NCBI GenBank assembly: GCA_963840455.1
Contig: CAWIYV010000011.1
Coordinates: 128,001-192,000, forward strand
Source of the DNA: Nitrospirota bacterium
GTDB lineage: Bacteria > Nitrospirota > UBA9217
DNA: 64,000 nt
Direction: 5' to 3'
Within the stretch, counting starts at the first letter, position 1, and each line of letters opens with the position of its first letter. The position numbers were made by a program, and so were the translations under genes. Positions 12,088 through 36,180 of this stretch are shown here, in pieces. The notes under the pieces were generated by a model, which had not been told where the DNA came from, made no database searches, and was given only the letters and a program-made list of their open reading frames with translations.

Positions 12088-12099
12088 GACAATATCCTC

Positions 12100-19416: not shown

Positions 19417-19790
19417 ACTGTTACCTCCACATTGAGGTATCGCCGTTCCTGACGCGACTTCACTACGTAGGCAATTTGCACTATGAGCTTTTCCTCGACG
19501 GCCTCCGCCTTAACCCTATCAACACTGATCACACTGCCCAGCCATTTGTCCAGGGCCTGCAGGATCGTCACCTGCATGAGGCTCGCCGTGACGTCACTAT
19601 TGGGCGCGAAGATCATATTCCTCAGTCCACAGCCGAAATCAGGCCTATTGATCCGCTCACCCGATGAGGTAAGGAGCACCTGTTTGATCATTTGTTCGAC
19701 ATGCTGTGCATAGTCCGTTTCCTGCAGCAGGCGTCCCAGCCCGGTGTCGATCCCTATGGGATAATGAATAGATTGAATGTTCTTGCTCAT
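19413..19790 (-). CDS. GPW/gp25-family baseplate protein (Afp9-type)
   Basis: IKQVLLTSSGERINRPDFGCGL. Confidence 0.92.
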   Translation of the reverse strand: MSKNIQSIHYPIGIDTGLGRLLQETDYAQHVEQMIKQVLLTSSGERINRPDFGCGLRNMIFAPNSDVTASLMQVTILQALDKWLGSVISVDRVKAEAVEEKLIVQIAYVVKSRQERRYLNVEVTV

Positions 19791-19839
19791 ACACTGTTAC
19801 CGTCAAGCGATCAGGGAGCAAACACCGGCACGGGGCCGT

Positions 19840-20268
19840 TCACGACAAATCCATTACTTCTATTTCCTCGACTTCCGCTTTATGGACATTGCCGACTTGG
19901 TCCTGATATTGTTCCACGCTGATACCATGCCACTTTATCTTCCCGAGTTTTTGCGAAATTCCTCCGAAATTATCCGCAAGATCGTACACATCCACTTCTG
20001 ACTCGTTATTGCTCAAAACTTTGTGCTGGTTCGCCTGACTTTCGTCCTGTTCAACATACACCTTCAGTTTAAAGGCCTCTGATGAGTAGTCCTTCAGATG
20101 TTTAAGCACTCCTTGCGCGATCGCGGAAAATAAGATCCGCCGCTCAACCTGGCCAAGTGCGGTCATGGTTGTCCCGGTATATGCCTCCCATGCTGCCCGA
20201 AAGGCTTCTTCCATGGCCTCTGCCATGCTGCCGGAGTAATCTGATACCGTCCCTGCTTTAAATGCCAT
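19840..20268 (-). CDS. hypothetical protein at the position often held by a PAAR-like gene
   Basis: Intact ORF with RBS between spike and gp25; no PAAR motif. Confidence 0.7.
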   Translation of the reverse strand: MAFKAGTVSDYSGSMAEAMEEAFRAAWEAYTGTTMTALGQVERRILFSAIAQGVLKHLKDYSSEAFKLKVYVEQDESQANQHKVLSNNESEVDVYDLADNFGGISQKLGKIKWHGISVEQYQDQVGNVHKAEVEEIEVMDLS

Positions 20269-20288
20269 GACACAATTCTCCGTTTATG

Positions 20289-20993
20289 CTATCCGGTTTT
20301 GACCCTCATCGATACAAGCTGCAAAGTAGCCGGTGGAAACGGCGGTACGGGAGGCGCCGGCGTGACCGGCAGCACGCCGAGCGCGAGCTGTCCCGGATGG
20401 ATGTGGCTCTGATACAGCGACACGAGCTGGTTCAGATAGGTGATCAGCTCGTCGCCGAACACCACGGGGTGCGTGGAGTTCTCCACCAGCTCGATCTGCG
20501 GCGCTTCTACGACTGCTTTGACAGCCCCTTTCACGGTGATCTTGCTCTGTTGGACCTCGATGGTCAGCATGTTGTTGCCGTTCTCGTCGCTTAAGCTGAT
20601 CTTCTGGCCGTCGTCGTCGAGAGTGACCATCAGACCCTGCCTGGTCCTGATGATCTTGAGCGGCGGCGTGGCTCCGGCGCCTGACTCGTTCTTCGGGAGT
20701 TGGTTATCGGCCCAGAAAAAACCTGTCCAAATGGGATACGACGGGTCACCAGCCTCGAATTCAACAAAAATACCTGTGCCCGTTTCCGGCTGCGCATAAA
20801 ACCCCATGCCGTCCCCTGCATAGGGTGTACACGGCATCGCCCATACCTCGAGGCCGCCCAGTACCGCCGGCACGCGGACCTTGATCCGTCCGCGCGATGT
20901 TGGATCATTATTGTCAGTGACCGTTCCCCGGTACTTTCCAAAATAACGGCTGCGCACCCAGTCAAGCAATTGTTCCTGCGAATCCTCGTTCAT
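20289..20993 (-). CDS. baseplate assembly protein V / gp5-like spike (OB fold)
   Basis: RYFGKYRGTVTDNNDP..GRIKVRVP, VEFEAGDPSYPIWTG; C-terminal HIH. Confidence 0.92.
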   Translation of the reverse strand: MNEDSQEQLLDWVRSRYFGKYRGTVTDNNDPTSRGRIKVRVPAVLGGLEVWAMPCTPYAGDGMGFYAQPETGTGIFVEFEAGDPSYPIWTGFFWADNQLPKNESGAGATPPLKIIRTRQGLMVTLDDDGQKISLSDENGNNMLTIEVQQSKITVKGAVKAVVEAPQIELVENSTHPVVFGDELITYLNQLVSLYQSHIHPGQLALGVLPVTPAPPVPPFPPATLQLVSMRVKTG

Positions 20994-20994
20994 A

Positions 20995-22053
20995 TCAACT
21001 TCCCCACCCGTTTCGCCACAATTCCATTTCCATGCGGTGCGATTCTGCATCGATGGTGTGCCGCACACCGGCTACGAAATAATCGCCGCTGTGCCTGCTG
21101 CCTGCCCCGCGGACCTTCACGAGCGTATGTGCGCGGACCAGCGTGCCGAGGGTGTCCAAGCTTGTCTGGCACGTGGCCTGGGTGAACCAGTCTGCCTCTA
21201 TCAGCGCCCCCTCACCTCGCGCCGTCAGATCGCCGGTGTCGTCTGCCGGAGCTGCCAGATGAATGGATCGGGTGTCGCCGGTGATCGCCTGTAGGCCCTG
21301 GGTACCCAGAATAGGCTGTGGTGTAGTAGCAACAGCGCCGTTCATCTCGGACAAGGTGTTCAGGTCCAGTTGGGACCCCTCTATGCTCGTTGGCCGCTCT
21401 GCATCCCAGGTGATGTCGAGCGTCTGTATTCTGGGCGAAGCCAGGTTGATCACCAACTCCGCGCTCGGCCCTCCTCTCAATGGCGGGCGCTTGAAGTGTG
21501 CGGTCTCTGTTCCCTGGGCGTCGCAGCTGATCCAGAACAGATAGCCGTTGCGCCGCGCCAGTCGGCGGACGAACCGAAGGTCGCTGTCGCGCTGAACGAG
21601 CGTGTGCTTCGCTTCGTAATGTCCCGCGCTGGTCGTTTGCACATCAGACGTGTACCCATACTTGCTGAGAATCGTCTGCACTGCATCGCTGTCGGTCAGG
21701 TCGGCCCAGATGGCTGACCTCGTCTCCCGGTCCATGATGATCGATGTGTCCGAGCCGAAGACTTCCAGTGTGGAACCCGCGCCTCCGTGCCGGAGCCGGA
21801 CCTGCTGTTTATGGACCGGACCCTTGACCAGGCAGTGGATCTGGCCGTCAATAGGAACCAGGACTGAGAGTTCGGAGCCGGCGTCGAGCCTGCCGTCTGT
21901 AAGGAGCGGGATGTCGCCCTCACTGATATCCAGATCGTATTGAATCTGGAACGTTGTTGCCTCGCTGATCCGTTCGCTTACAATCAATTTTCGCGCTTGA
22001 ATAAGCTCTGGATCCGGTTTGCCTTTGATGGCTATCGCAATGCCCAGTCCCAC
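20995..22053 (-). CDS. late control D / gp27-like hub protein
   Basis: VQRDSDLRFVRRLARRNG, VRGAGSRHSGDYFVAGVRHTI. Confidence 0.88.
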   Translation of the reverse strand: MGLGIAIAIKGKPDPELIQARKLIVSERISEATTFQIQYDLDISEGDIPLLTDGRLDAGSELSVLVPIDGQIHCLVKGPVHKQQVRLRHGGAGSTLEVFGSDTSIIMDRETRSAIWADLTDSDAVQTILSKYGYTSDVQTTSAGHYEAKHTLVQRDSDLRFVRRLARRNGYLFWISCDAQGTETAHFKRPPLRGGPSAELVINLASPRIQTLDITWDAERPTSIEGSQLDLNTLSEMNGAVATTPQPILGTQGLQAITGDTRSIHLAAPADDTGDLTARGEGALIEADWFTQATCQTSLDTLGTLVRAHTLVKVRGAGSRHSGDYFVAGVRHTIDAESHRMEMELWRNGWGS

Positions 22054-22331
22054 TACCGCACCTTCCTCGGGATCTCAATTTCGCGCTGCTCTGCCAGGGC
22101 ATCAGGGAGCATCACATCGTTCAGCTCGCAGATCCGCCAGAATCCTGCCGCATCATCCAGGTAACCCTTGGCCAGATGGTCCATCCGCTGGCCCTGACGC
22201 ACGAGGTGAGTGCCCAATGCGGTCTGGCCGGGCGTCTCAGGCACTGGAACAACCTTGACCTTCCGGCCCCGCCGGTCAACGACCTCGTAGGGTTCGAGCT
22301 TCGCATAGCGGCTTTTGGGATCGAACAACAT
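22053..22331 (-). CDS. LysM/tail-X-like baseplate protein
   Basis: HLVRQGQRMDHLAKGYLDD..FWRICELN...IEIP. Confidence 0.8.
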   Translation of the reverse strand: MLFDPKSRYAKLEPYEVVDRRGRKVKVVPVPETPGQTALGTHLVRQGQRMDHLAKGYLDDAAGFWRICELNDVMLPDALAEQREIEIPRKVR

Positions 22332-22340
22332 AACTACCTC

Positions 22341-23039
22341 CTATAACGGAAGCATGTCCAGGATCGATTCAGCGGTATTTGCAAGGTTCAGCCGGGCCAG
22401 TACCTCTTTCTGCGTCCGGGTGTATTTATAGGCCTTGATCGCAAGCTCCTCGCCCATCGAGAGCTTCCGCCCAAGCTTCTTGAACGAATCCTCGGTGAGC
22501 ACCGTGAGCCCCACCGAGACCGTGGCCCGGATCGGGTAGAGTGTGGGCAGGAACTCCTGCTCGTCCACGGAGAAGCTTGTGACACGCACCGGCAGAACGC
22601 GTCCCGGCCCCCAGATGAAGAGCACGATCGGCACGCTCCCCCGCGGCACTACGTCACCTGAGCCGAAGATCTCGGGAAGCAGTTGACCCAGGAGTGAATC
22701 GCCCACCGGATAGAGCAACATTTCGAGGGCGCTGATCCGGTCAGCAACGCCGGATATCTTCGCCGCCGGGTGTTTCTCCGGTTCTTCCAGGGCGTCCGTG
22801 GCATCGAGCTCAAGCTTCAGCTCGAATGACTCTCCCGGATCATAGGGCTCTGCCGTGGTCTCCTTGGCTTGGCCGCCTCCTTCTTCTGTGGAGGCTGAAG
22901 AGGGTGTCATGGTCCTGCTTATGGTCTCCGGGTTGTATTGGAAAACGATCACGTTCGGGATCGGTCCCAGAAAATCCTCGGATAGCTTCACGAGGGCGCC
23001 TTTCACCAGTTTCGGGCTTCTCGAATATCCATTCGGCAT
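22341..23039 (-). CDS. CIS tube-initiator protein (Afp7-like)
   Basis: VFQYNPETISRT, VLFIWG..RVLPVRVTSFSVDEQEF...PIRATV. Confidence 0.85.
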   Translation of the reverse strand: MPNGYSRSPKLVKGALVKLSEDFLGPIPNVIVFQYNPETISRTMTPSSASTEEGGGQAKETTAEPYDPGESFELKLELDATDALEEPEKHPAAKISGVADRISALEMLLYPVGDSLLGQLLPEIFGSGDVVPRGSVPIVLFIWGPGRVLPVRVTSFSVDEQEFLPTLYPIRATVSVGLTVLTEDSFKKLGRKLSMGEELAIKAYKYTRTQKEVLARLNLANTAESILDMLPL

Positions 23040-23051
23040 ACTGTAACCTCG

Positions 23052-23645
23052 CTAAGTTCTGGACTTCTTACCGGCCAAGCTCTTTTTTGCGTTATTGATC
23101 TTGTCCGCGGCCGCAGGATGACGCTCAAGGATCAACTTTTCCCATGGAGCATAGAGATCTTCTTGCAGTTTGCCAGGTGTTGGCTCCAAATGTTCAACTA
23201 TATTTATTAGATGGATGCACCACTGACCGCCATATTCACCAATATCTGTCATCTCGCTCTCGGTCAACTTCTCTTTCTTCTTCTCATTGTCGCATCGAGT
23301 CCCTAATGCTTTGTCGAAGTTAATCCAAAGTTGCGCCTCATGATAGGCAAGATCCGGGTTGAGACTGAGGATAAAGTCACGGTTCTCCGACGGATTGCGA
23401 AAGATCTCCTCGTGGATGAATCGCTTCCGAAGATAGTCGGTCCATACTACCTGCTCTTTCTGGTTCTCTGGTTCGTGCGGCTCCATCTCTTGCATCTCAC
23501 GGTAGATTAACTTTTCAAACTCCTTTTTACGCTGTTCAGACTTCAGCTTCTCTATGCGCTTTGGCAACCAAACACCAAGAACAAAGAGGACTGAAGGCAT
23601 GAAAACAACATCGATAAAATCTTTCAAATTATCGAATCCCCCCAT
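23052..23645 (-). CDS. hypothetical protein with an N-terminal transmembrane segment
   Basis: Intact ORF with RBS; FIDVVFMPSVLFVLGVWL. Confidence 0.7.
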   Translation of the reverse strand: MGGFDNLKDFIDVVFMPSVLFVLGVWLPKRIEKLKSEQRKKEFEKLIYREMQEMEPHEPENQKEQVVWTDYLRKRFIHEEIFRNPSENRDFILSLNPDLAYHEAQLWINFDKALGTRCDNEKKKEKLTESEMTDIGEYGGQWCIHLINIVEHLEPTPGKLQEDLYAPWEKLILERHPAAADKINNAKKSLAGKKSRT

Positions 23646-23664
23646 AATATTCCTTCCCGTCCGG

Positions 23665-24780
23665 CTACGAAAACACGGGCTTCTTGAAGTTTATGTGAAC
23701 GCAATGATTTGGCGGCTCCGGCTGCGTGCTGTTTATGGAAAATTCACCCTGTTCGCCGAATTCCGGGATCTGCGTTTTCAGGATATCGTCGAGAACCTTG
23801 AGATCGAGCCCGGAAACATCCATCGCTTTCCCGATTAGATGCGGCGAAGCATTCACCGCCTTGCCCTTCCAGGTGGTATTAGCAGGCGCGGCCACAAGCG
23901 GAAGCGTACGCTTATCAGAAGGGACACCCGGCCCTCCCCCGCCCCAGTATAAAGCCAGGAAAAACGGGACCCAAACATCCATATCCGCCACCGTGCACGA
24001 TGCGAATTTCTCCCAGTCAAGCGTACCCTTGAGCCAATCCGTCTTCTCGGCATAGGCATTAACGCTCTTTTTATTCTGTTTACAATACCCCCTGAGAATG
24101 TCGAGCTGTTTTTTCTGGTCTCGCTTTGCAGATCCGACCGTAGCCTTCTTTCCTTTCCCGAAGGTTCCAAGCTCATTGTGTTTCTCAATAACGTCTTTTG
24201 GGTTTTTCGCTGCGGCCGCTGCCGGTGTCTGTACTGCCGGCACCGGAGCTGCTTTTGGTGCTTTACCTTTCTCTTCACCGCCTGTTATAGATTTGATCAA
24301 TTCCCTTGCGTATTCTATGAGATCAGCTCCGAAACCTTTCTCTTTTTTCTCCGCTGCAGTAGGAATAAGGATGGTCTCACTTGCATTAAACCCGATTTTC
24401 TTCCCTTTGGCTGTTGACCAGGTCTTCACCTTTGAAGCATTCTTCTTTATCAAGTCCTCTGCCTTGACGTTGAATTTCGCCGCGATCCGTTCGATCGTAT
24501 CTCCGGACTTGACTTTGTATGTTTGTTCTTTCTGCGCAACGGGTGTCGCATTTGCCGGGCTGCCGCTATCCTTATCATATGCATCACCGACCGAAGCGAT
24601 TTTCTGCCCCGATGGAGCAATGGGACGGTAAGAGCCTTTAATCACACTATGATTGCCTAGACTATCCCGGGAAGTCTGTGCAGTTTGAAGTGACTTGCGT
24701 TGCAGCGTACTTGTCTCGCTTATTTGATAGGCCTTAATTTGACCTTTCGTCTGTTTCTTCTTAGTAGTTAGCTGTTTCAT
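23665..24780 (-). CDS. LysM domain plus M15-type zinc peptidase (putative eCIS cargo or lysin)
   Basis: LysM YKVKSGDTIERIAAKFNV; SAKRDQKKQ, SPHLIGKAMD (SxHxxGxAxD) and HCVH. Confidence 0.75.
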   Translation of the reverse strand: MKQLTTKKKQTKGQIKAYQISETSTLQRKSLQTAQTSRDSLGNHSVIKGSYRPIAPSGQKIASVGDAYDKDSGSPANATPVAQKEQTYKVKSGDTIERIAAKFNVKAEDLIKKNASKVKTWSTAKGKKIGFNASETILIPTAAEKKEKGFGADLIEYARELIKSITGGEEKGKAPKAAPVPAVQTPAAAAAKNPKDVIEKHNELGTFGKGKKATVGSAKRDQKKQLDILRGYCKQNKKSVNAYAEKTDWLKGTLDWEKFASCTVADMDVWVPFFLALYWGGGGPGVPSDKRTLPLVAAPANTTWKGKAVNASPHLIGKAMDVSGLDLKVLDDILKTQIPEFGEQGEFSINSTQPEPPNHCVHINFKKPVFS

Positions 24781-24843
24781 GCGGCTCTACACCTCATCAC
24801 GCACCAAGTCCCATTAACACGAAAGCTCTGAACTTAAGGTGTT

Positions 24844-25299
24844 CTAAAGTGTTTGCGAACCACGCGCAGTGGCTATCAATTCATCTTCCCAAAAATACCG
24901 GACCTCAATCGGCTTTTCAGCCTTGAGAGCAGTCAGTGGCACGACGAACTTCAGTCTGTACTGCTCAGGGCCCACTGCATCCCACCCCTCCTCTCCTTCT
25001 CTGGATATAGTGGTGATCTGACTGCCAGTCACTGACTGTCCGTCTTGAAAGATCTGAACCTTGTTTGTCGTGCCCCGCTCCTTTTCAGATCTCCAGATGT
25101 AATCCCATATGTCTGATTTACCGGTTGGTACAAGCAGATCGAAGACCACATTTGACTTCAAGACACTCAGATTGATCACTCGAAGCTCACCTTCCGGTAA
25201 CCAGTACTTCTTGCTCTGTGCAACCACGGGTGCCCCATTCAGTTGCATGATGATTTCCACAGCTTCCATCCCGGTCTCCTTCTGCTGTTGTAACGTCAA
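24844..25299 (-). CDS. hypothetical protein (5' end uncertain)
   Basis: Open frame continues upstream to an in-frame TGA at 25353-25351, preceded by ATG at 25362. Confidence 0.55.
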   Translation of the reverse strand: MTLQQQKETGMEAVEIIMQLNGAPVVAQSKKYWLPEGELRVINLSVLKSNVVFDLLVPTGKSDIWDYIWRSEKERGTTNKVQIFQDGQSVTGSQITTISREGEEGWDAVGPEQYRLKFVVPLTALKAEKPIEVRYFWEDELIATARGSQTL

Positions 25300-25609
25300 C
25301 TCACCTATGCGAATTACCGGCCTGATGTTTATCTTTATGTCGCGGATCCTTCAATAATTCATCGAGTGCTTTCTGCGCAGTTCTTCCGAGCAACTTTTGT
25401 TTTTGCATCCTTTATCGGTTCACGTAGAAATTCTGGAGCTCCTTAAGATTCAAAAGAGTGAAAAACTTATTCACAATATCTTTTTTAGGTTCTTCTTTTA
25501 GTTGTCCAATTCATTTATGAGTGTCAATATGTGCCTAACTGAGCACACCAGCGGGAAACTGGCACGATTCTGCCTGTTCCATTATTTACCGTTCAGCATT
25601 TTCCCCACT

Positions 25610-27829
25610 CTAACGAGTTACTCCAGCCTTCTTTATAAGTTTAGGATCCGCGATAACGCTTGGTGGGCTTCCATCCTTATGAAAGACCCGCCAAATCCGG
25701 CCTTCTTCGTCAAAGACGAAAAGGTCTTGCTTCAGATTCAAAGCCTGCTTCTGAAAGAACTCCACACAATCCTGGCACATCCACTTATCAACGGATATTG
25801 GCTGTCCAGGGTTGGCAACAGCTAACTGCTTCTCTGCATGACTCGCGTTCCATTCGCCGACAAAATTTTTGTCTCGGGGATGTGGTTTCAATTTATGTCC
25901 GATTTTCTCAGCTCGTTCCGCTACTGCCTCAGAACTTACTCTCTTTAATGGTTTTCGGCTGACCGCCCTCCTGTAGATGGTAACTCCTCCAGGTTGCTGT
26001 TCAATGCTCACCGCGACGGTCGCACCTTTCTTTGCTCGTTTCTGCGGTAACTTCTCACGCATTCGAGCAGTCGCTCCTGGTGCTGGTTCCTGCCCCGCAC
26101 CCACTGTTTTTGGTACCCTGCCTTTTTCGACTATTACCTTGGCAGGTTTAACACGTTTGCCTTCGACATAGCTTCCGCCTGTTTCTATTTGTCGGGGGGC
26201 ATCTCCTAGGCGGGCTGTTTTCGCACCTTCTTCTATTTCACCACCGACGCGCGTAACAGTACCGCCAGCCTTCTCAGCCTCACGTATTTTGCCTACGTAG
26301 CGATTGGCCTGTAGGATGCGCCGTAAACCGGGAATGTGCTCCAATAAGTCTATCAATCTCCTCGCGAATCGACTCGTTCTCAATGCTTTGCCAGCCGCCG
26401 ATACTCCGCGCGCCACCCACGCTTCTGGGCCAAGAAACAGCAAGGCGATCTCGAACACCACATAACCCTCTACTCTCCCAACCTTGAAACCCTTCCAAAA
26501 AGGGCTCGCTTTTTTGAAGTCGGTATTATACCAGCGGCCGGCCATTTGCCCAACTTGCTGCCCTATCTCGTATCCAAATTCGATTAGAAACGCTGGATAT
26601 CGACGCATCTGCTCGATGAATTCAGTTAGTCCCCTCTTCACTTCTTGGGCGTAACGTGCTTGCGCCGCCCGCTTAGCTTTATATCCCTGAGGATCCTGCA
26701 AAAACTCGATTCCTTCTTTGATCCCCAATTGGAGCAATCCCTGAGGGGTCAGATATTTAGCAACAAAAGAGGCAAGTTCTGCAATTCCAACGACATTGTC
26801 TTTCAGGCTCTCAAGCGCTCCTACTGGAGCGCCCAACTGAACACCACCGTTGAAAGCCAAAAGGTTCATTGTCTCGCTCAGTTCGTTACTTAGAGTAGCC
26901 CACTCGTCCGCATGAATCGTCTGTCGCGCCCCTATCAAGAAGCCTTGAGCAAAGCCAGTGGTTATTGTGGCTAGCCGATAGGCAGCCTTCAGTTCGCCTG
27001 GCATCCAGGCTGATATCTTTTCCCCGTACTTTCGTTCGTAAGCCACCAACATCCGCTGTGCTGCGGATTGCATCAGTATTCCGAGCTGGTTTTCAAGCTC
27101 TGCTCGTTCTGAACTCTGTCCCGGGTTATCTCGGAGCCATTTTTTGATGAGCTTTATTTCCCGCTGAAGCTTCTCGTCTGACATCAGTTGCACGTTTGGT
27201 GACTGATTAAGCGAGAGTGGTTGTCGCGCCAGTCTAACTCCGGATGAACCCCACACTCGTATCGGCCCTCTCCCTTTTATGGCGGCCCCAGCCGCCCAAT
27301 CAGCCGCCTGTTCCAAGGCACCGCTCTGAGAGAGGGAAAGCGATGTCGTCCCGCCACGTGACTGTTGTATTACGTGTGCCAACTCGTGAGCCACAAGGCG
27401 ATATCCTTCGCTACTTTCGAGTTTGTACCGGCCATATCCAAAGACTAGATCTTGACCCACCGTGTAAGCTGATGCGTTTACCGTTCGCGCCGACTTCGCT
27501 GCCCTCGCATCAGTATGCACCCTCACGTTACTGAAATCATGCCCGAAGCGCGGTTCAAAATGCGCGCGCGTTTTCGGATCAATCGGTTGGCCGGGAGAGC
27601 GCAGGACCTCCTGTATAATGGGCGGTACTGCTTTTGGCCTGTTTTCATTATGCGGCTTGTGTTTCGCAATGTTATTGCCAAAACTTCGCAGCACGCCATG
27701 ATTCCCCATTGTGCCTTGAAGATCATGACCCGAATGCGCAAAGCCCTGCTGCTGCGACGAAATTTCAGCATTCTGCACTTTCCGTGCATTACGCTCTGTC
27801 TGCTTCTTCTTGACTGCGACCTGTTTCAC
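25610..27829 (-). CDS. DUF4157 (eCIS core) protein with a C-terminal Zn-dependent nucleic-acid deaminase toxin domain
   Basis: FEPRFGHDFSNVRVHTD...LVAHELAHVIQQ; C-terminal SHAEKQL...MCQDC; GTG start overlaps the upstream stop (GTGA). Confidence 0.88.
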   Translation of the reverse strand: MKQVAVKKKQTERNARKVQNAEISSQQQGFAHSGHDLQGTMGNHGVLRSFGNNIAKHKPHNENRPKAVPPIIQEVLRSPGQPIDPKTRAHFEPRFGHDFSNVRVHTDARAAKSARTVNASAYTVGQDLVFGYGRYKLESSEGYRLVAHELAHVIQQSRGGTTSLSLSQSGALEQAADWAAGAAIKGRGPIRVWGSSGVRLARQPLSLNQSPNVQLMSDEKLQREIKLIKKWLRDNPGQSSERAELENQLGILMQSAAQRMLVAYERKYGEKISAWMPGELKAAYRLATITTGFAQGFLIGARQTIHADEWATLSNELSETMNLLAFNGGVQLGAPVGALESLKDNVVGIAELASFVAKYLTPQGLLQLGIKEGIEFLQDPQGYKAKRAAQARYAQEVKRGLTEFIEQMRRYPAFLIEFGYEIGQQVGQMAGRWYNTDFKKASPFWKGFKVGRVEGYVVFEIALLFLGPEAWVARGVSAAGKALRTSRFARRLIDLLEHIPGLRRILQANRYVGKIREAEKAGGTVTRVGGEIEEGAKTARLGDAPRQIETGGSYVEGKRVKPAKVIVEKGRVPKTVGAGQEPAPGATARMREKLPQKRAKKGATVAVSIEQQPGGVTIYRRAVSRKPLKRVSSEAVAERAEKIGHKLKPHPRDKNFVGEWNASHAEKQLAVANPGQPISVDKWMCQDCVEFFQKQALNLKQDLFVFDEEGRIWRVFHKDGSPPSVIADPKLIKKAGVTR

Positions 27830-28062
27830 TTCAAAACCCTCAGGATTGCATCGGAGATCATTGTCACCAGTCGTTCCCGTGTTGCTCCCGTCGTGACGGG
27901 AATTTTCAATTCTATTGCGCCGAGACGGCGGTCCTTTTGCTGTGGAGGGAGTTTATCCGCCACGCGACGCATCACGTCCGCGCCCAGCCTCTGTGCTTCG
28001 CCCTTGCTGTGTCCGGGCAGCCGCAAAATAAAATCTTCTATCTTCACCTCATCCTTTTGCAT
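27826..28062 (-). CDS. small eCIS-associated hypothetical protein
   Basis: Overlaps both the ATPase and the DUF4157 gene; IEDFILRLPG. Confidence 0.7.
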   Translation of the reverse strand: MQKDEVKIEDFILRLPGHSKGEAQRLGADVMRRVADKLPPQQKDRRLGAIELKIPVTTGATRERLVTMISDAILRVLK

Positions 28063-30154
28063 AGCTCCGCAGCCGATCCCGCTCCCGCCCGCTCAGGACC
28101 CGGCCTTCCTTCATGAGCTCTCGCTCCACGCCCCGGAGGAGATGGGTCAGGCCCATGGGTCTACGGTCCCGGCGTGCCACAAACAGGGCCGTGAGTATTG
28201 CGAACTTGATTTGTGCTCCGGTCAGCTCCAGGTGCTCGGCGAGCGCAGTGACCTCGTGTTCCAGCTTTTTAGTGTGCTCCGGCCCCGCCAGTTCTTCGGC
28301 TATCTTCCGCCAGATCTCTCCGCGCTGGGCCGAGTTCGGTTTCGGAAACTCCAGCACATAGCGGATTCGTCTGAGGAAGGCGGGATCGATGTTGCTTTTC
28401 CGATTTGTCGCGAGGATCGCGACGCCGCGGTAGTTCTCAACGGCCTGGAGCAGGTATCCCGTATCGGTATTTGCAAATCGGTCATGGGCGTCTTTAATTT
28501 CCGTCCTCTTGCCGAACAGGGCGTCCGCCTCGTCGAAGAGCAGCACGATGTCCATGGTGGCTGCGCGGGAAAGGATGCGTTCCAGGTTCTGGGAGGTCTC
28601 GCCGACATACTTGCTGACCACTGCGGAAAGGTCCACGCGAAACACATCAAGCCCTAGACTCGCGGCAATGACCTGGGCCGCCATGGTCTTGCCCGTTCCC
28701 GGCGGGCCGCTGAACAAGGTCAGTAGTCCTCTGCCTTGGGGAAAGAGGCGACGTCTTTTCGGCTGCTCCCAGAATTCAACGCGTTCCCGGGCCTCGAAGG
28801 CAAGATCTTCCAGGGTGTCGCGGAGATGGTCCGGAACGACGATGTCGTCCCACGTGAAGGGGCACTCGAGCATCTGGGCGAGACTGTCGAGCTTCTTTCG
28901 GTTGGACTCACGCACGAAGGTAAGAGCGGTCTCAGCGCTCTGGATGTTCTGCCGCGCCGCTGATGCGATTTCACCTATCTGCACCCGGTGCTGGGACACA
29001 AGCGTGTCGAACTCCTCGGATTCCCACGATTCCGATTGGGGCACAAAGTGCCGCCAGAGAAGGCGTCGTTCCTCCTGGGATAGTTCCGGCAGTTCGACAC
29101 GGAGGTCTGCGACTCCCGGAACAGGGGGGACCTGCTGCGCTGCTTCCGCAATGACGAACTGCAGGGGAAAAAGAGGAACCGTTACTGGCCATGCCCTCCG
29201 AAGCGGGTTCTCGCCATGCCACGCAAGGGCGCACCGTTCGAGATACGCTTGCCGCTGCGCATGCAAGAACGCCGTATGCCAGGTCTGATCGTCAACCAGG
29301 TCTGTATCGATCGCGAGCAGCGGAAGGCCGAGTCGCGAGCAGATTCCCGCGGCAAAAGTGCGCCGGCCGCTGCTGGATGGTCCGGTAATGTGCAGCCGCA
29401 CGGTCTGGGGAGCTTTTCCCTGGAGCAGTTCCTTGATCGTCGATGCGGTCTCGCTCATCGGCCAGTTCTTCAGGGGCTCAAGGGGATCTTGGAAACGGCT
29501 GATTCCCGCGAGCCGTTCATCAAGATAATCCTCGCCTGCCAGCCAGTCGCAGATGAAGGGGTCACAGATCAGCCTGGCGGGCTCGCCGGAACCGACCTCG
29601 TATTGCCTTACTAGGCCCCACCGCCTGAGCGCAGACTCAGGGCTCCAATGACTTCGATGAACATGTCCGAAGAGCCGCGCGGCCAGTTCCGCAGTCGCGT
29701 ACCCCCGTCCTGCGTGGTCGTGCAGGTAGGCATAAACGCGGGAGAGCGCGGGATCAAGGGCCGGAGCCAGACAGAGCTGTAAAAGGTCTGATTCCGCTGG
29801 GCTGATGTCGAAAAGGGCATGGAGCTGCGCAAAGCGGGACTTGGTGTCCGCAGCTATGGCTGCTTCGAGTCGATCTATTTCATAGTTCAACTGTTTCATA
29901 CCGGCGTCAGATGCAAACCACGCTGCCTCCGCTTCGGGCGAGTCCCGGTTGTCAAGATAGGTGTCGATCTCGGCATGGGTCACTGCCACCGTGCCACCCG
30001 GCGCTCCTTCCTCTGCCCAGAGTTTCCTGAGCCAGGCGACGCGCCGCTTTGCGAGGAGACGCATCCGCGACAACACCCGATCGAGCGCTGCATCGAGCTT
30101 CTCCTGTCCCCTTTCGAATTCCCTGATGGCATGTTGCTGTCGTGTTCGCGTCAT
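28049..30154 (-). CDS. AAA+ ATPase (Afp15/Pvc15-type)
   Basis: GPPGTGKT, VSKYVGET, LLFDEADALFGKR, DAHDRFAN, ATNRKSNIDPAFLRR; ATG at 30154 overlaps the upstream stop. Confidence 0.93.
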   Translation of the reverse strand: MTRTRQQHAIREFERGQEKLDAALDRVLSRMRLLAKRRVAWLRKLWAEEGAPGGTVAVTHAEIDTYLDNRDSPEAEAAWFASDAGMKQLNYEIDRLEAAIAADTKSRFAQLHALFDISPAESDLLQLCLAPALDPALSRVYAYLHDHAGRGYATAELAARLFGHVHRSHWSPESALRRWGLVRQYEVGSGEPARLICDPFICDWLAGEDYLDERLAGISRFQDPLEPLKNWPMSETASTIKELLQGKAPQTVRLHITGPSSSGRRTFAAGICSRLGLPLLAIDTDLVDDQTWHTAFLHAQRQAYLERCALAWHGENPLRRAWPVTVPLFPLQFVIAEAAQQVPPVPGVADLRVELPELSQEERRLLWRHFVPQSESWESEEFDTLVSQHRVQIGEIASAARQNIQSAETALTFVRESNRKKLDSLAQMLECPFTWDDIVVPDHLRDTLEDLAFEARERVEFWEQPKRRRLFPQGRGLLTLFSGPPGTGKTMAAQVIAASLGLDVFRVDLSAVVSKYVGETSQNLERILSRAATMDIVLLFDEADALFGKRTEIKDAHDRFANTDTGYLLQAVENYRGVAILATNRKSNIDPAFLRRIRYVLEFPKPNSAQRGEIWRKIAEELAGPEHTKKLEHEVTALAEHLELTGAQIKFAILTALFVARRDRRPMGLTHLLRGVERELMKEGRVLSGRERDRLRSYAKG

Positions 30155-31446
30155 GGCATCTTGATCCACTGCGGAGAAGACTCCGCGCCGTTCACGAAAA
30201 TCCGCAGCGGATAATTTTTACCCGGCTCCAGCGTGGTCGGCAGCTGCACGGTGATCTGGGACGTGGAATCGATTGTGAACTCGCCGCTTGCGAGCGGCCC
30301 GCCAGAGGAGAGCGCCAGTCTTATCTGCCCCACATATACCTGCACGCCCCCCGTGGGAATGTCTGCGTGCCGGAAGAGATATCCGGTTATGACGACCTTA
30401 TGGACAGCATCGGGTGGAGCAACAGAATCAATCCGCGGAGTAATGGTGAAAGGGCAAGCGTTGGATCGATGTTCGATATCCTGCGTCCCCGATGGTGTGG
30501 CCAGTTTTCTGGTGACTTTTGCAATTACAGCGTATACTCCTGGAATCACATCGTTTCCGTTGGCCTTTTCCTGTGCCACGGACGAAAGCTCGATGGCTGT
30601 TGCAGCAAGGCTCCATGAAGCGGTAACGTCAACCGGATCGCTCCAGCGCTGATGACACAGCAATAAAGACGTCCGCTCGCCGGTAAAGCCTGCACCTTTA
30701 AATTTGATCCTGCTCTTTTCGATTGCCGGGTCGTTAGGTGGCAATCCTGTTTTTACAGAAGGCGCCTGGGCGGGTTGAAGCGTCAGGTTTTGTGTTGCTA
30801 ATGTGCCTGGTATTAGGAAGGACATAGTGCTTTGACTGCTGTCTATCCTCGGAGCCCCGTTGACAAAGGTCTGAATCCCGTATGCCAAGACTCGGCCAGC
30901 CCGGGATTTCGACTCCTCCGGCTCAAGCAGAGCGACAGAAACCTGGTAATAGGCGGCAAGACGGAGGGGCGATGATCCGGCTGTCCAGTAGCTCACGGCA
31001 TCATGGTGTGCAACAGGCTGAAGCACGATCCGCAGACGGTTATTATCCCCTTGGAGGTCCGCGGGATAAATGCTCGTTCCGTCAATCGCTGTTGCATCGT
31101 CTATGATCGGATAATCGCGAAGGGCCTTAATAGCAATGCCCATCATCTGCTGTTCAAGAAGACTGTCTTCAGAAGTGCTGCGAGCGGTAAGCTGGTAAAA
31201 GAGATTCAGCCCCATGGGCGTATAACGGACGGGTGGTGTGTCGTTGCCTAGTGCAGGCAGATTTTTGTAATGCGCATCCTCTGCTATGTGATAGAGATAC
31301 AGGCCGATGGAGTCGCCGGTCAGCAGGTTCGGCGGCTGGGGTGAAACAGTAGGAGCAGTAGCACCCCATGCCGGCGATGCTCTGAAATATTCCGAGATCA
31401 GTGTGGTGAGCGCCTGGGTCACCAGGCTGATATTCAGCAATGCCAT
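30151..31446 (-). CDS. DUF4255 (Pvc16/Afp16-like) cap/terminator protein with C-terminal Ig-like domains
   Basis: IGLYLYHIAEDAHYKN, LNLFYQLTA, LAAYYQVSVALLE. Confidence 0.88.
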   Translation of the reverse strand: MALLNISLVTQALTTLISEYFRASPAWGATAPTVSPQPPNLLTGDSIGLYLYHIAEDAHYKNLPALGNDTPPVRYTPMGLNLFYQLTARSTSEDSLLEQQMMGIAIKALRDYPIIDDATAIDGTSIYPADLQGDNNRLRIVLQPVAHHDAVSYWTAGSSPLRLAAYYQVSVALLEPEESKSRAGRVLAYGIQTFVNGAPRIDSSQSTMSFLIPGTLATQNLTLQPAQAPSVKTGLPPNDPAIEKSRIKFKGAGFTGERTSLLLCHQRWSDPVDVTASWSLAATAIELSSVAQEKANGNDVIPGVYAVIAKVTRKLATPSGTQDIEHRSNACPFTITPRIDSVAPPDAVHKVVITGYLFRHADIPTGGVQVYVGQIRLALSSGGPLASGEFTIDSTSQITVQLPTTLEPGKNYPLRIFVNGAESSPQWIKMP

Positions 31447-31448
31447 GG

Positions 31449-32279
31449 CTACATTTGCCCCAGACCGAAACGCAGAGGAGAACGTAATCGGCCTTTCTGA
31501 TCAGATGGTTCCGTTTTTGTCATCGACGATCCATCATGTCCATGCCGCCGTTCATGCCGCGGTGACGGCGCTTGTGCAACGACCTCAACCTTCATCTGCT
31601 CGATAATAAGCTTGTTTGTTGCCTTTACTTCCTCTCGCGTGATTGACTGGTGCCGCGTCGTCTCTTGCAGAGCCACCGGTGACAGTGTCGGCACGATCTC
31701 GGTCACTATGCTAATCGATCTGTCTGCATTGTCACGGTCATCGAGCGATCTCCTGGTTTCCTGTGTGTCCTGGGTTGACTTTTCCAGTGTTCGCTGTGTA
31801 ACTTCTTCATGCTCGTTGAAGCTATGTTTCTGAATCAAGTTTGATTTATCATAATCAAAACCCTTTAATTGCTGGAATGTTCGAACTTCTGGAGGTGTTG
31901 TATCTTTTCGCTCGATATTTCCAACGGATGTGTTTACCTGGATAGTATTCATTCTGTCGAGTACCACTGCCGGGGAATCCGACACCTTCTCATGGGATAC
32001 AGAAATAGCATCGTTCTCTTTAATATGATCTGTCTTGCCCTTTGCGTTCTCATTCAGGTGCGGAATCGCGGATTCAGGAGGAGGAACTAGATAAGATGTG
32101 CCTTCCTCCTTACGCTGGTTGCGAAGAACGTTATCGGAAATGGTTTCCTCTCCCTTTGTTTGTTCCGGGGAAAGCTCCTCAGTATTGGTCCATAGAGCAT
32201 TGTGGACAGACGGACTTATGGAGAAATGATGGCAACTTCCGTTGATCCTGCTCACGATTTGTCGTAAATATCCGCTCAT
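31449..32279 (-). CDS. hypothetical low-complexity eCIS protein
   Basis: MSGYLRQIV start, charged and disordered-looking middle, LIIEQMKVEVV and LRFGLGQM end; in operon. Confidence 0.7.
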   Translation of the reverse strand: MSGYLRQIVSRINGSCHHFSISPSVHNALWTNTEELSPEQTKGEETISDNVLRNQRKEEGTSYLVPPPESAIPHLNENAKGKTDHIKENDAISVSHEKVSDSPAVVLDRMNTIQVNTSVGNIERKDTTPPEVRTFQQLKGFDYDKSNLIQKHSFNEHEEVTQRTLEKSTQDTQETRRSLDDRDNADRSISIVTEIVPTLSPVALQETTRHQSITREEVKATNKLIIEQMKVEVVAQAPSPRHERRHGHDGSSMTKTEPSDQKGRLRSPLRFGLGQM

Positions 32280-33076
32280 GAATGCCCCCTTTGTCGGACT
32301 GAGGATCCGGTGTCGGCCAGGTCCACATACATGAGCCTCACGCTCCGGGGCAACGATAGGATCTCGTTGAGGCTCCAGCCATAGGTGCGTGCGAGCCGGT
32401 CCACTTCACGGGCAAGAAGCTTTTTGCCGCTTCCAAGGGCAGTAAGGAGGAAATACTGGATGTCGAAATGTACTACCTGTTGCTCACCACACTCAGGACA
32501 TCGTGCGTCCATATCAAGATCCAGCAGGGGGGCCGCTTCTTCCATCGCGCGCTCTATGGCATCCGGGTCGTCTTGAGTTTGTCTGTTAATGACACAGCGC
32601 TGGAGTAGCACGTTAATAGCTCGGTCTGGTTCTATTTCCAACACGGCGCATTCATCCTCTCCGGTAGGAAGCCGGAAGCAGGTGCCTTCCGGCAGGGTAA
32701 AAACGCCGTCATGCTCCTGCTGAGTATGCGCGTGTTTCACGTTCCGGGCCAAGTGGTCAAGCAGGGCGCCAAGGTCAAAGCCCACATCAAAGGGGGCCTT
32801 GCATTTCCTGCACATCACAGTACTTTCGATTGTTGACCCGTATGTGCGCGAATATATCTCGGCCAACAGCCGATCCCGCTCTGCTGTTGGCAATTTCTTG
32901 GCAGTGCCAGATACAACATTGGAGCCTGGATCATTCACGAGGAGTCGATCCAGCAGGTGGATGGCCTCCATCGTCCCAAGGCCGCCCATATCCTGTTCGT
33001 CATGGCCGCATATTTCCCTCAAAGTTGCCCAGTGACAGTTCGGCATGAAGCATATTGGCACTTGATAGATCGACAT
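32276..33076 (-). CDS. T4 gp26-like baseplate/tail assembly protein
   Basis: Two CxxC motifs (CRKC, CPEC), FRLPTGED, LARTYGWSLNEILSLP. Confidence 0.8.
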   Translation of the reverse strand: MSIYQVPICFMPNCHWATLREICGHDEQDMGGLGTMEAIHLLDRLLVNDPGSNVVSGTAKKLPTAERDRLLAEIYSRTYGSTIESTVMCRKCKAPFDVGFDLGALLDHLARNVKHAHTQQEHDGVFTLPEGTCFRLPTGEDECAVLEIEPDRAINVLLQRCVINRQTQDDPDAIERAMEEAAPLLDLDMDARCPECGEQQVVHFDIQYFLLTALGSGKKLLAREVDRLARTYGWSLNEILSLPRSVRLMYVDLADTGSSVRQRGHS

Positions 33077-33099
33077 GACACCTTTTTACTCGTGATCGA

Positions 33100-33606
33100 T
33101 TACTTCTCTGTTGGTTCGGGAACTTCGACATCGCGCTCCCAACCTTCATTCTGCACGACCATGGATTCGATGGCCACGGAGTTTCCTCCGGCATCCAGCT
33201 CCGGCAATGCCGTATACTCGGAAACCCAGCAGCGATACACCTTGTACGCCTTTGCCACGCTTCCTTGCTCGTTCAGAAGCTCAATGATGATGTCTTTGCG
33301 GAAGTTCTTGAGAGAGATGGCGGCGTCGCCTCCGGTGTTGTAGATGAGCTTTGCCCAGTTCTCGAACTCCACATCGTGCGTCACGCCGCGCTCAAGGTGG
33401 ATGGGCTCAAATTTCCATTTCGACGGTGCAACGCGTGAAGTACTTGGATCGCCTCCCTCGCGGTGCGTGACCGGCTCCGTCGACTGCTTCAGAGCGCCGA
33501 TCTTGCTGACACCCGCGACGTATTTGCCGTCCCACTTGATCCGGAACTTGAAGTTCTTGTACGGATCGAATCGATGCGCATTAACGGGGAATTGTGGCGC
33601 GCCCAT
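33100..33606 (-). CDS. phage tail tube protein (T4 gp19 family)
   Basis: RFDPYKNFKFRIKWDG, HREGGD, IHLERGVT, ELDAGGNSVAIE. Confidence 0.95.
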   Translation of the reverse strand: MGAPQFPVNAHRFDPYKNFKFRIKWDGKYVAGVSKIGALKQSTEPVTHREGGDPSTSRVAPSKWKFEPIHLERGVTHDVEFENWAKLIYNTGGDAAISLKNFRKDIIIELLNEQGSVAKAYKVYRCWVSEYTALPELDAGGNSVAIESMVVQNEGWERDVEVPEPTEK

Positions 33607-33633
33607 ATCATTTTCTCCTTTTTTTACAGTATG

Positions 33634-36180
33634 TTAGACTTGGACCTGTCCAGCCATCTGCTGTAGTTTGATAATTACGAATTCTGCCGGCTTGAGAGGT
33701 GCAAAGCCCACGTGAATGTTGACTATGCCAAGATTGATGTCATTCTGCGTCGTCGTCTCCTTGTCGCATTTGACAAAATAGGCATCTCGCGGCACCTGGC
33801 CCTGGAACGCTCCCTGCCGGAAGAGATCGTGCATGAACGCCCCGACGTTGAGGCGAATCTGCGACCAGAGTGGCTCGTCGTTGGGTTCAAAGACAACCCA
33901 TTTTAGATTTCGATAGAGAGTTTCTTCTATGAAGAGAGCCAATCTCTTAACGGGTATATATTTATACTCGCTCGCAAAACTGTCATCGCCATCCATGGTG
34001 CGTGCGCCCCAATTGACAATGCCGTTGGGGAATAGTCGCAAGGTATTGACCGCTTTGGGATTCATGTAACCATTTTCTGTATCTGAAAAATTATACTCTA
34101 GGCCTTGTACACCTCTCAGATCGGCTTCGGTTCCTGCCGGGGCTTTCCACACGCCACGGGCGCTATCGATGCGCGCCATGAGTCCGGCAATGGCACCACT
34201 CGGGCCGATTGTTACAGTACCACCGTTTTCACGCACTTTGATTCTTGGAAAAAATACAGCACTCGAGTTCTTTACTAGTCCAATTCGCAGTGAATTTACT
34301 CCATCAGTGGGACTGACAGCGATATTAGAATCCTTCCATTTCTCAGGTGGATCAATCAGGAGGAACGCTCGACGTTTTTCACAAAAAACACTTGCAGGCG
34401 GCCAAAGACTTGCTGATGTCTTATCATCATGATCTCTATCTTTTGGCAAAACCATTATATTGAACAAATCCACTTCGCTGTCGATAATCTTAAAAGCTTT
34501 TTCATAATCAGGCAACTGAGGTGTGCCGCCATCATTTCCCGCTATCCCGGGAACAACCTGACATGCGCTGGATCCGCTGGTGCCGAGGCAATAGCATCGC
34601 GTATTTTTTATGAAGCTTGGACCGACATCTTTTCCTCCACCTGCTATGCTGCTCGTGCTGATATTCGTTGATATGTTTTCAGTTTTTTCAGTGCTCTTTA
34701 TTACGAGGCGTGCGCCCCACACCTCAGCACTCCAGACAAAATCCCGTTTTTTTACCCGCACGCTGTTAATTGCTTCCGCAATTATATTCAGCTTTTCTCT
34801 GACACCCCGGGCACCATTATTTACGTTTGTCGCGCTACTATCGTGATACATACTTGCCACGTTACCCGACGGCAAGGGAGGGGTCGTCGTGAGTTTGTAA
34901 GGCCCTGTTAAATCAATATCGGTTCCAGCAATCGTAATTCTGTCAAAAGCTGTTTGATCAGATTGGGAAAATTCATCGAGATCATCTATGTTAAACGTGC
35001 CTCCTGATGGATCTGTCGGGCGAAAGACGATTCCGTTTGGGGCCGGTCGCTTTTTAGCATATTTAGATATTTCAAGCCCACCTAGAGCCGGACCCAGCAT
35101 CAGAGGGGCGGCGAGGTCTTTATCAGCCGCCGGCTCAATAAGTACATCTCCTTTGGCTGATGCGATAATAATGTAGTAAGTAATTTGATTATCCTGACCT
35201 GGATAGCTGTTCGGGCCTGTATAGAAGGGAAGTGCAGTAAGCCCGGCCGGGGTATAACTAGAATTTATGCATACGTATACCTTCGCTCCAAATGCGAGAC
35301 TGTCGTTAATAGTCTTCTCGACCACACCCCCTATGTTATTCCATATTGTATCGTTAGTATATAATTGCATATTCGCGGCGCCACCGCTCCCGTAAATGGG
35401 ATGAGCCGCATCAAGAAATGTAATAGCGGATAGATCGACATCTACAAAAGGATTACCGTCAACGCTGATTCTGAATTTATTTCCAAGTGCATTAGCATTG
35501 GCCCCAAACAGTTGTGAAATTTGTTGGGCAAAAAAAGGATGGTCATTGTTTTTAGCGGAAATCGGTCTCCCCGATTGTGAGTACCCATAAGCCGCTTCAG
35601 TTCCGGGGCCGCCGCTGACATCTGTAATGTCGACTAAGGCCGAGTTTTGAGTTACAAGCGTCGGTGCAAATCGTGGGCTATTCGGATCCATGCATAATTC
35701 TCGATATATCTCGCTCTCAGATTCAGAGAGAGAATCTCCTCTCTTTATCATTCGGAATACTCTGAGATTGAAAGTGGACTCTGGTCGTTGGGTATTGTAG
35801 TCAACGGCAATACGAATTTCATCTCCGGCAACACCCGCTGATTTAGCAGTGATCTTTATAGAGTCGGCACTGGCATCTTCGTTTTTTATTGTTATTTCAG
35901 ACTTTCTCCATGTGTTATCTGCGATGCGCATGACATAACAATCTGTCCCGCCGTTCATAAAAAACATTTTCACCGCTCTCACGAGGTCGCTTCCGGCGTC
36001 AAGAGCTGTAAATTTCCGTTCGAACGCATCAAAGCTTGAACATCGATTCGGTTTGAACAATTCGCCTTTCTTCGCTCGGCCAATGAACATCGCAGTTGAA
36101 GTTCCAACTCCTACAATGGTTCTTACTCCACTTGGGATTTCTTCTACATAAACGCCCGGATACGTCGGATTTACTGGCAT
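33634..36180 (-). CDS. contractile tail sheath protein with a large internal insertion
   Basis: YPGVYVEEIPSG, RGVWKAPAG, WGARTM, WVVFEPNDEPLW, VGFAPLKPAEFVII. Confidence 0.95.
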   Translation of the reverse strand: MPVNPTYPGVYVEEIPSGVRTIVGVGTSTAMFIGRAKKGELFKPNRCSSFDAFERKFTALDAGSDLVRAVKMFFMNGGTDCYVMRIADNTWRKSEITIKNEDASADSIKITAKSAGVAGDEIRIAVDYNTQRPESTFNLRVFRMIKRGDSLSESESEIYRELCMDPNSPRFAPTLVTQNSALVDITDVSGGPGTEAAYGYSQSGRPISAKNNDHPFFAQQISQLFGANANALGNKFRISVDGNPFVDVDLSAITFLDAAHPIYGSGGAANMQLYTNDTIWNNIGGVVEKTINDSLAFGAKVYVCINSSYTPAGLTALPFYTGPNSYPGQDNQITYYIIIASAKGDVLIEPAADKDLAAPLMLGPALGGLEISKYAKKRPAPNGIVFRPTDPSGGTFNIDDLDEFSQSDQTAFDRITIAGTDIDLTGPYKLTTTPPLPSGNVASMYHDSSATNVNNGARGVREKLNIIAEAINSVRVKKRDFVWSAEVWGARLVIKSTEKTENISTNISTSSIAGGGKDVGPSFIKNTRCYCLGTSGSSACQVVPGIAGNDGGTPQLPDYEKAFKIIDSEVDLFNIMVLPKDRDHDDKTSASLWPPASVFCEKRRAFLLIDPPEKWKDSNIAVSPTDGVNSLRIGLVKNSSAVFFPRIKVRENGGTVTIGPSGAIAGLMARIDSARGVWKAPAGTEADLRGVQGLEYNFSDTENGYMNPKAVNTLRLFPNGIVNWGARTMDGDDSFASEYKYIPVKRLALFIEETLYRNLKWVVFEPNDEPLWSQIRLNVGAFMHDLFRQGAFQGQVPRDAYFVKCDKETTTQNDINLGIVNIHVGFAPLKPAEFVIIKLQQMAGQVQV

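Follow-up and report, generated by a model that had tools for sequence, protein, structure and literature searches.

The gene described here lies in a 64,000-nucleotide stretch of a Nitrospirota bacterium genome (contig CAWIYV010000011.1, positions 128,001 to 192,000), hereafter called the window. Its product is probably a toxin carried as cargo by an extracellular contractile injection system (eCIS), with a deaminase end of the SsdA type that would be injected to deaminate target DNA. The 739-residue product is one more representative of the already known DUF4157-deaminase cargo toxins and, as judged from its sequence, its C-terminal domain is homologous to SsdA of Pseudomonas syringae.

From N- to C-terminus, the protein consists of a leader, a DUF4157 domain, a helical middle region and the SsdA-like deaminase domain. 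A preliminary description of this DNA had proposed an SsdA-like end fused to a DUF4157 eCIS protein at 25610-25990, which covers about the last 126 residues. Its core was confirmed, namely the SsdA-type end on a DUF4157 eCIS protein, while its remark on a tryptophan and its view of the novelty were not.

An identical sequence (P0002) is present in public protein collections. The C-terminal end of the 739-residue open reading frame (ORF) reads ...RVSSEAVAERAEKIGHKLKPHPRDKNFVGEWNASHAEKQLAVANPGQPISVDKWMCQDCVEFFQKQ... and the gene and its parts are placed in the window as follows.

25610..27829, minus strand: whole cargo-toxin gene, 739 aa, GTG start, no internal stop (ORF list and translation)
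27590..27829, minus strand: N-terminal region, about residues 1-80, of K/R/Q/S/G-rich composition, candidate cargo-loading leader
27353..27586, minus strand: DUF4157/eCIS_core domain, residues 82-159 (Pfam PF13699)
26081..27304, minus strand: middle region, residues 176-583, without known family
25613..26080, minus strand: SsdA-like cytosine deaminase domain, residues 584-739 (PDB match and AlphaFold2 model)
25967..25990, minus strand: G614-G615-V616-T-I-Y-R-R in place of the SGW motif (pairwise and family alignment)
25832..25840, minus strand: H664-A665-E666, zinc-ligand His and catalytic Glu, SsdA H346/E348 (alignment to SsdA)
25766..25783, minus strand: W683-M-C685-Q-D-C688, zinc-binding CxxC, SsdA C367/C370 (alignments)

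Homology of the C-terminal domain to SsdA

In a phmmer search of all PDB chains, the last 156 residues matched SsdA at E 1.4e-20 over 140 residues (7jtu) and at E 9.9e-20 (9c63), and the next PDB match had an E-value of 0.47. The likeness to SsdA is therefore far beyond chance. The Pfam family SsdA_C (PF24120) was matched at E 6e-12 with 46.4 bits against a cut-off of 27.

The fold agrees with the sequence matches. An AlphaFold2 model of the deaminase domain, built on 75 sequences, reached a mean predicted local distance difference test score (pLDDT) of 88.7 and a predicted template modelling score (pTM) of 0.83. When the model was compared with known folds by Foldseek, its best three matches were all SsdA chains (9c63/7jtu) with a template modelling score (TM) of 0.75 and E ~1e-12. 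Thus the likeness to SsdA proposed earlier is a real homology.

The fourth match was a PPR-DYW RNA editor bound to RNA (9kfx, E 8e-5). Weaker matches followed with plant DYW domains and then DddA (E ~0.03, TM 0.40), the DYW matches ranging from E 8e-5 to 0.06. In the profile search, DYW1 was reached only at E 0.002 and over the CxDC stretch. The translation holds no CxC and no Cys after C688, and it ends in ...KKAGVTR.

A plant-type DYW RNA-editing deaminase was thus rejected for its missing CxC, its missing terminal DYW and its weak fold similarity. A possible echo of the plant PG box in the Pro-Gly-Gly found here was set aside, the profile search having aligned nothing in that region.

The family was searched over 1.84 billion cluster representatives, 273 of which had E <= 0.001, and the best 150 of the 273 were used. 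Family counts below refer to the 149 listed representatives besides this protein, called the others, in the 150-row alignment. The His of HAE is present in 147/149 and its Glu in 146/149 of them, and the two cysteines of CxxC in 149/149 and 148/149.

These residues had been pointed out at the C-terminus before, and they are present as H664-A665-E666, C685 and C688 (the two cysteines spanning 25766-25777), W683 standing two positions ahead of C685. A Trp in place of a usual Pro had also been thought worth remark. Of the 149 others, just 70 have Pro at that position, while 20 have Ala, 15 Glu, 11 Val and 3 Trp. As Pro is not conserved there, Trp683 carries little weight. The changes that matter, Lys289 to Ala and SGW to Gly-Gly-Val with an insertion, had been overlooked.

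A FastTree tree of the 150 domains was built from 121 columns. Together with P0003, this protein forms the sister group of the SsdA pair P0006/P0009 with an SH-like support of 95, and most other forks of the tree are unresolved.

Rebuilt surroundings of the active site

The residues tested in SsdA by Yin et al. 2025 (PMC12494967) were mapped onto the present domain through pairwise and 150-row alignments. Seven SsdA positions are kept: T290, G301, H332, H346, E348, C367 and C370. Two changes are conservative, R336 to Lys and Y342 to Trp, and three others fall on family-variable positions, Y334 to Arg, F343 to Asn and P365 to Trp.

The remaining changes hit positions that hardly vary in the 150-row alignment. 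K289 is Ala here and Lys in 122/131 others, S300 is Gly here and Ser in 128/132, and W302 is Val here and aromatic in 120/134. The SGW motif next to the active site has been called a family hallmark (PMC7901873, PMC12494967, PMC11789416). In both alignments its place is taken by G614-G615-V616, only the Gly of the motif being retained. GGV-x is followed by a four-residue insertion, IYRR, with one aromatic and two basic side chains.

Among the listed relatives, the pattern of Ala and GGV-x-IYRR is common to only P0003 and P0152. The former is a 148-aa fragment with 66% identity, and the latter is a 700-aa protein that has DUF4157 and SsdA_C and is 67% identical in the deaminase domain. P0007 makes a partial departure, as TGA replaces SGW with Lys289 retained. 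The present sequence is best called an SGW-less offshoot of the SsdA family, not a typical member. Because the odd loop is kept in three sequences and the catalytic residues are intact, we infer an active enzyme whose DNA-binding edge has been rebuilt.

In SsdA this loop holds the DNA on the downstream side of the target base, so its rebuilding raises the alternative that the fold and the zinc chemistry are the same with a substrate preference other than SsdA's, be it double-stranded DNA, RNA, modified cytosines or another sequence context. The replacement of the near-invariant K289, S300 and W302 by Ala, Gly and Val together with IYRR speaks for it, and so do the confinement of this pattern to P0003 and P0152 among the listed relatives, the rank of the RNA-bound 9kfx (E 8e-5) as the fourth fold match, and the changes of Y334 to Arg and F343 to Asn, though both positions vary family-wide. 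Moreover, SsdA-like enzymes differ in their preference for single- or double-stranded DNA and for modified cytosine (10.1101/2023.06.29.547047).

On the other side, the nearest relatives in the tree are SsdA and its PAAR-bearing homologue, and His332, Lys for Arg336 and Trp for Tyr342 retain part of the SsdA DNA-binding cluster. An altered preference is unlikely on balance. Its most concrete form is also doubtful, namely that in this protein, P0003 and P0152 the Lys289/SGW clamp would have been swapped for a Pro-Gly-Gly-Val...Ile-Tyr-Arg-Arg hairpin, with a substrate range unlike that of SsdA (double-stranded DNA, RNA or modified cytosine).

The same losses could be taken as decay, the deaminase domain being a weakened or inactive passenger module on a cargo protein. 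Three positions needed by SsdA are lost, and the domain is rare (0/60 related genomes). However, the catalytic and zinc residues, four in all, have been preserved, and no stop interrupts the 739 codons. The odd loop and the rest of the domain are kept at 66-67% identity in P0003 and P0152, and the model is confident (pLDDT 88.7). Decay is thus very unlikely, and an SsdA-type deaminase acting on DNA remains the preferred reading of the domain.

The DUF4157 front part and the injection-system operon

The fusion of this end to a DUF4157 eCIS protein, as the preliminary description had it, is borne out by both the domain and the surroundings. PF13699 was matched by residues 82-159 at E 3.1e-31 with 107.8 bits against a cut-off of 22, and the gene is within a full contractile-injection operon. 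The HExxH of the DUF4157 domain is intact and can be read from the translation as H148-E-L-A-H152 (HELAH).

The middle region (residues 176-583) gave no match in the Pfam and NCBIfam scans. Hydropathy shows a single strongly hydrophobic stretch in it, at about residues 448-480. The region is also conserved in P0152. A Protein Atlas look-up of it returned an eCIS_core cluster at 0.81, as a lead only. The operon and the genes next to the deaminase gene are listed here.

8137..36180, minus strand: contractile-injection operon, all genes on the minus strand (Pfam and NCBIfam)
28049..30169, minus strand: AAA+ ATPase with winged-helix domain, Pvc15-type (Pfam AAA E 3.3e-27, WHD E 9.3e-20)
27826-28062, minus strand: 78-aa ORF upstream of the deaminase gene, its stop overlapping the GTG start of that gene
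24844..25269, minus strand: 141-aa gene directly downstream of the deaminase gene, with ATG and an AGGAGA ribosome site, between the two candidate cargo genes
23665..24780, minus strand: LysM protein, 371 aa (LysM match E 1.4e-6)

From 36180 down, the operon starts with the sheath, a gp19-type tube, a T4-baseplate-like protein, Pvc16_N and the AAA+ ATPase with its winged-helix domain. The cargo part then consists of the 78-aa ORF, the deaminase gene, the 141-aa ORF, the LysM protein and a 197-aa ORF. It is followed by a tube-like protein of contractile injection systems (CIS), a GPD-type hub, a spike OB domain, gp25, baseplate J and a TIGR02243 baseplate assembly protein (NCBIfam, E 4e-45). 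The last product is a 1316-aa DUF6519/beta-helix fibre-like protein.

The Pvc15-type ATPase is likely the cargo loader, by analogy with the loader role of Pvc15/Alg15 (PMC11495950; preprint 10.64898/2026.05.27.728243). DUF4157, the deaminase domain and the 141-aa ORF have one copy each in the 4.03-Mb genome.

The 78-aa ORF was considered as a conserved partner of DUF4157 genes and rejected, as there was 1 convincing case among 160 loci from DUF4157-pattern scans of metagenomes and genomes. Its lone homologue is weak (E 3e-4) and lies ~400 bp upstream of the DUF4157 match in the locus L028.

Upstream of the operon, all on the minus strand, are a sigma-54-dependent activator (36781-38205), an ISL3 transposase (39670-40686) and a 1158-aa WD40 protein (41002-44478). 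Allowing one mismatch, a search for the sigma-54 promoter consensus found 2 sites where 2.0 were expected, and neither is near the operon start. In the 310-bp gap after the deaminase gene, no promoter or terminator was found.

The base composition changes along the operon. Within the cargo block from the deaminase gene through the 197-aa ORF (23052-27829), the genes have 46-53% G+C and the 310-bp gap 40%. By comparison, the ATPase and tube-like genes on either side reach 59-61%, and the genome as a whole 57.9%. A low value of 47% is also seen in the sheath gene, hence the G+C signal of the cargo block is mixed.

A second candidate cargo with a similar leader

The leaders of the deaminase and LysM proteins, taken as the first 55 residues (27665-27829 and 24616-24780, both on the minus strand), are the reciprocal best match of each other genome-wide. 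They have 31% identity over 55 residues without gaps, at a weak E of 0.004. G-N-H occurs ~42 residues into both leaders, and that Gly is invariant among the relatives of the LysM protein. The shared leader is a candidate for a system-specific loading signal.

The C-terminal 182 aa of the LysM protein show 52-61% identity to 10 proteins, half of which (5/10) have DUF4157. All 11 sequences, the LysM protein and its 10 relatives, share S-P-H-x-x-G-x-A-M-D and a His further on without exception. This set presumably resembles the zinc site of LAS-type cell-wall peptidases, which no tool confirmed. The C-terminal part gave no Pfam match, and a PDB sequence search with the last 211 aa gave none either. 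The LysM protein is a probable second cargo, not a structural part. If the likeness to LAS-type peptidases is right, it would act on the cell wall and the targets would be bacterial.

A precedent for the leader comes from AlgoCIS, whose cargoes have a disordered N-terminus, DUF4157 and a variable C-terminal domain. The disordered N-terminal region, not DUF4157, is required for loading, the loading is mediated by an AAA+ ATPase, and cargo pairs of one system have similar N-termini (preprint 10.64898/2026.05.27.728243). Because the N-terminal region of AlgoCIS cargoes is needed for loading, the present leader may have such a role. The window likewise has two candidate cargoes with similar N-termini, the second of them without DUF4157. 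The C-terminal domains described for AlgoCIS are not deaminases.

The downstream gene and self-protection

The 141-aa protein belongs to a small family, with five clusters including its own in 5.8 billion proteins. The four others are 58-69% identical to it. It has no sequence match in Pfam (immunity families included), NCBIfam or PDB. A Protein Atlas look-up of it led to unnamed clusters, as a lead only.

Its model is beta-rich with a pLDDT of 82, whereas SsdAI is helical. Foldseek of the model against PDB gave nothing at E <= 0.001, and in a wide VIA search the top Z was 6.5, to a phiKZ baseplate protein, which is within the background range. Modelled as a complex with the 141-aa protein, the deaminase domain scored 0.00 without controls, which speaks neither for nor against a pairing. 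A first metagenome scan for relatives gave none. By tblastn, the 160 DUF4157-pattern loci contained no SsdA-like domain and no 141-aa homologue. That the 141-aa protein is an immunity protein is a guess, and one that we expect to fail sooner than to succeed.

Self-protection bears on a further alternative, in which the machine acts inside its producer, as reported for Streptomyces CIS, and the deaminase works on the producer's own DNA in stress-induced death or differentiation. DUF4157 proteins have been linked to the cytoplasmic Streptomyces CIS (PMC11126660; 10.1101/2025.11.06.686954). The Pfam and PDB searches of the neighbours gave no clear immunity gene, and many PVC/eCIS toxins are without immunity genes (PMC3482391, PMC8213781).

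However, the large DUF6519/beta-helix fibre-like protein and the full baseplate are expected of a target-binding particle, and the probable second cargo acting on the cell wall suits attack from outside. The source is also a Nitrospirota bacterium, not a sporulating actinomycete. Action inside the producer is thus very unlikely, and we keep to a toxin that is injected into other cells.

Distribution and exchange of the toxin end

The frequency of the DUF4157 front end was estimated by a phmmer search of the 149 other listed representatives with the DUF4157 segment of the present protein. DUF4157 is N-terminal to the deaminase in 29/149, and in 29/62 of those >=400 aa, that is, of at least 400 residues. 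This makes it the commonest front end found among the listed representatives of that length.

A Pfam scan was made of the other 33 long representatives with P0004 and P0005 (n=35). All 35 had SsdA_C, 8 had PAAR, 4 had RHS repeats and 2 had signals of the type VII secretion system. In this set eCIS_core was found in P0005 only, which the phmmer query had already counted. The pairing of DUF4157 with SsdA_C was confirmed by Pfam in P0005, P0126 and P0152.

On the domain tree, the DUF4157 label requires 18 changes, at least 6 of which are forced by well-supported branches. Thus the deaminase module has moved between delivery front ends several times.

The front part can also be found with a different end. 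A metagenomic gene (L002, 5360-7387, plus strand) encodes DUF4157 and a homologue of the middle region, with Endonuclea_NS_2, a non-specific endonuclease domain, at its end. Its middle region is 29% identical to that of the present protein over 319 aa, and the gene adjoins AAA ATPase, Pvc16_N and sheath genes. A variable toxin end on a conserved front part is standard polymorphic-toxin behaviour.

Among the related genomes, SsdA_C was present in 0/60. DUF4157 relatives were in 2/40 (G001:C52 = L164; G042:C83 = L163) with the matches confined to the DUF4157 domain. Hence the injection system and the toxin are sporadic in this lineage.

Comparison with known systems

SsdA (BaDTF2; structures 7jtu, 9c63 and 9c64) is the closest known counterpart, with a homologous toxin domain at ~40% identity to the fragment P0009. 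Common to both are the HAE and CxDC zinc site, the IGH and HP-x-D stretches, and the absence of a DYW tail and of a second Cys motif. SsdA is a 409-aa PAAR protein of type VI secretion, whereas the present protein has 739 aa and belongs to an eCIS operon as a DUF4157 cargo. Unlike SsdA, it has Ala/Gly/Val for Lys289/Ser300/Trp302, the four-residue insertion and Trp for Pro365, and no SsdAI relative was found adjoining the gene in the Pfam and PDB searches.

DddA (BaDTF1) and the plant DYW domains share the superfamily with its zinc HxE and CxxC, but their fold matches are far weaker. BaDTF2 and SsdA were defined by De Moraes et al. 2021 (PMC7901873), in whose text neither 'contractile' nor 'DUF4157' occurs.

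Another close counterpart is EAT11 of Amycolatopsis nigrescens, which is likewise eCIS-associated with an N-terminal DUF4157 and a predicted deaminase. Its expression in E. coli or yeast was toxic (Geller et al. 2021, PMC8213781), and DUF4157 was set in the same study as an eCIS core and toxin marker. EAT11 belongs to another phylum and is likened here as a deaminase only, since the passages on it name no deaminase family.

The combination of the two domains has a longer record. The 'PVC-metallopeptidase', now DUF4157, was described as an N-terminal and probably self-cleaving toxin domain whose toxin ends include nucleic-acid deaminases (Zhang et al. 2012, PMC3482391). By engineering, base editors have meanwhile been made from SsdA (PMC11789416). 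SsdA-like enzymes were also among 175 deaminases screened in vitro (10.1101/2023.06.29.547047).

The preliminary description had expected a possible new base-editing enzyme, which overrated the novelty. DUF4157-deaminase toxins are in print (PMC3482391, PMC8213781), and SsdA-like base editors exist.

Proposed mechanism

The domain identities, the operon context and the intact catalytic residues, all observed here, outline a path on which the loading, the delivery, the deaminase activity and the substrate would be as follows. The leader (~residues 1-80) is probably used by the neighbouring Pvc15-type AAA+ ATPase, by which the protein would be threaded into the tail tube. DUF4157 with its intact HExxH may have an accessory role, possibly in self-processing, and the middle region of ~400 residues may serve as a spacer.

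The last ~150 residues are predicted to adopt the fold of an SsdA-type zinc cytosine deaminase. Once injected, it would most likely convert cytosine to uracil in the DNA of the target cell, which would be killed or mutagenised. The LysM protein, encoded two genes downstream, would act on the cell wall as the second cargo and so points to bacterial targets.

Several points weigh against this reading. The Ala, Gly and Val stand at the SsdA-essential positions 289/300/302, whose substitutions K289A, S300A and W302A left SsdA with no or little activity (PMC12494967), so the activity or the substrate may differ here. The leader similarity is weak (E 0.004), and no recognisable immunity protein adjoins the deaminase gene according to the Pfam and PDB searches. 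Particle release and the kind of target are predictions from the genes. Moreover, rarity in the related genomes means that lineage conservation gives the function no support.

Implications

The protein adds a natural cytosine deaminase toxin in Nitrospirota, where the toxin and the injection system are uncommon among the relatives searched. The finding opens no long-standing question, and its practical interest is the rebuilt DNA-binding loop. If the hairpin does bring a substrate range unlike that of SsdA, the domain would be a small new scaffold for editing or sequencing chemistry, and the SGW motif would not be essential to the activity of this fold. Should the enzyme prove active with Lys289, Ser300 and Trp302 missing, it would show which contacts the fold can spare, and it may have another substrate preference.

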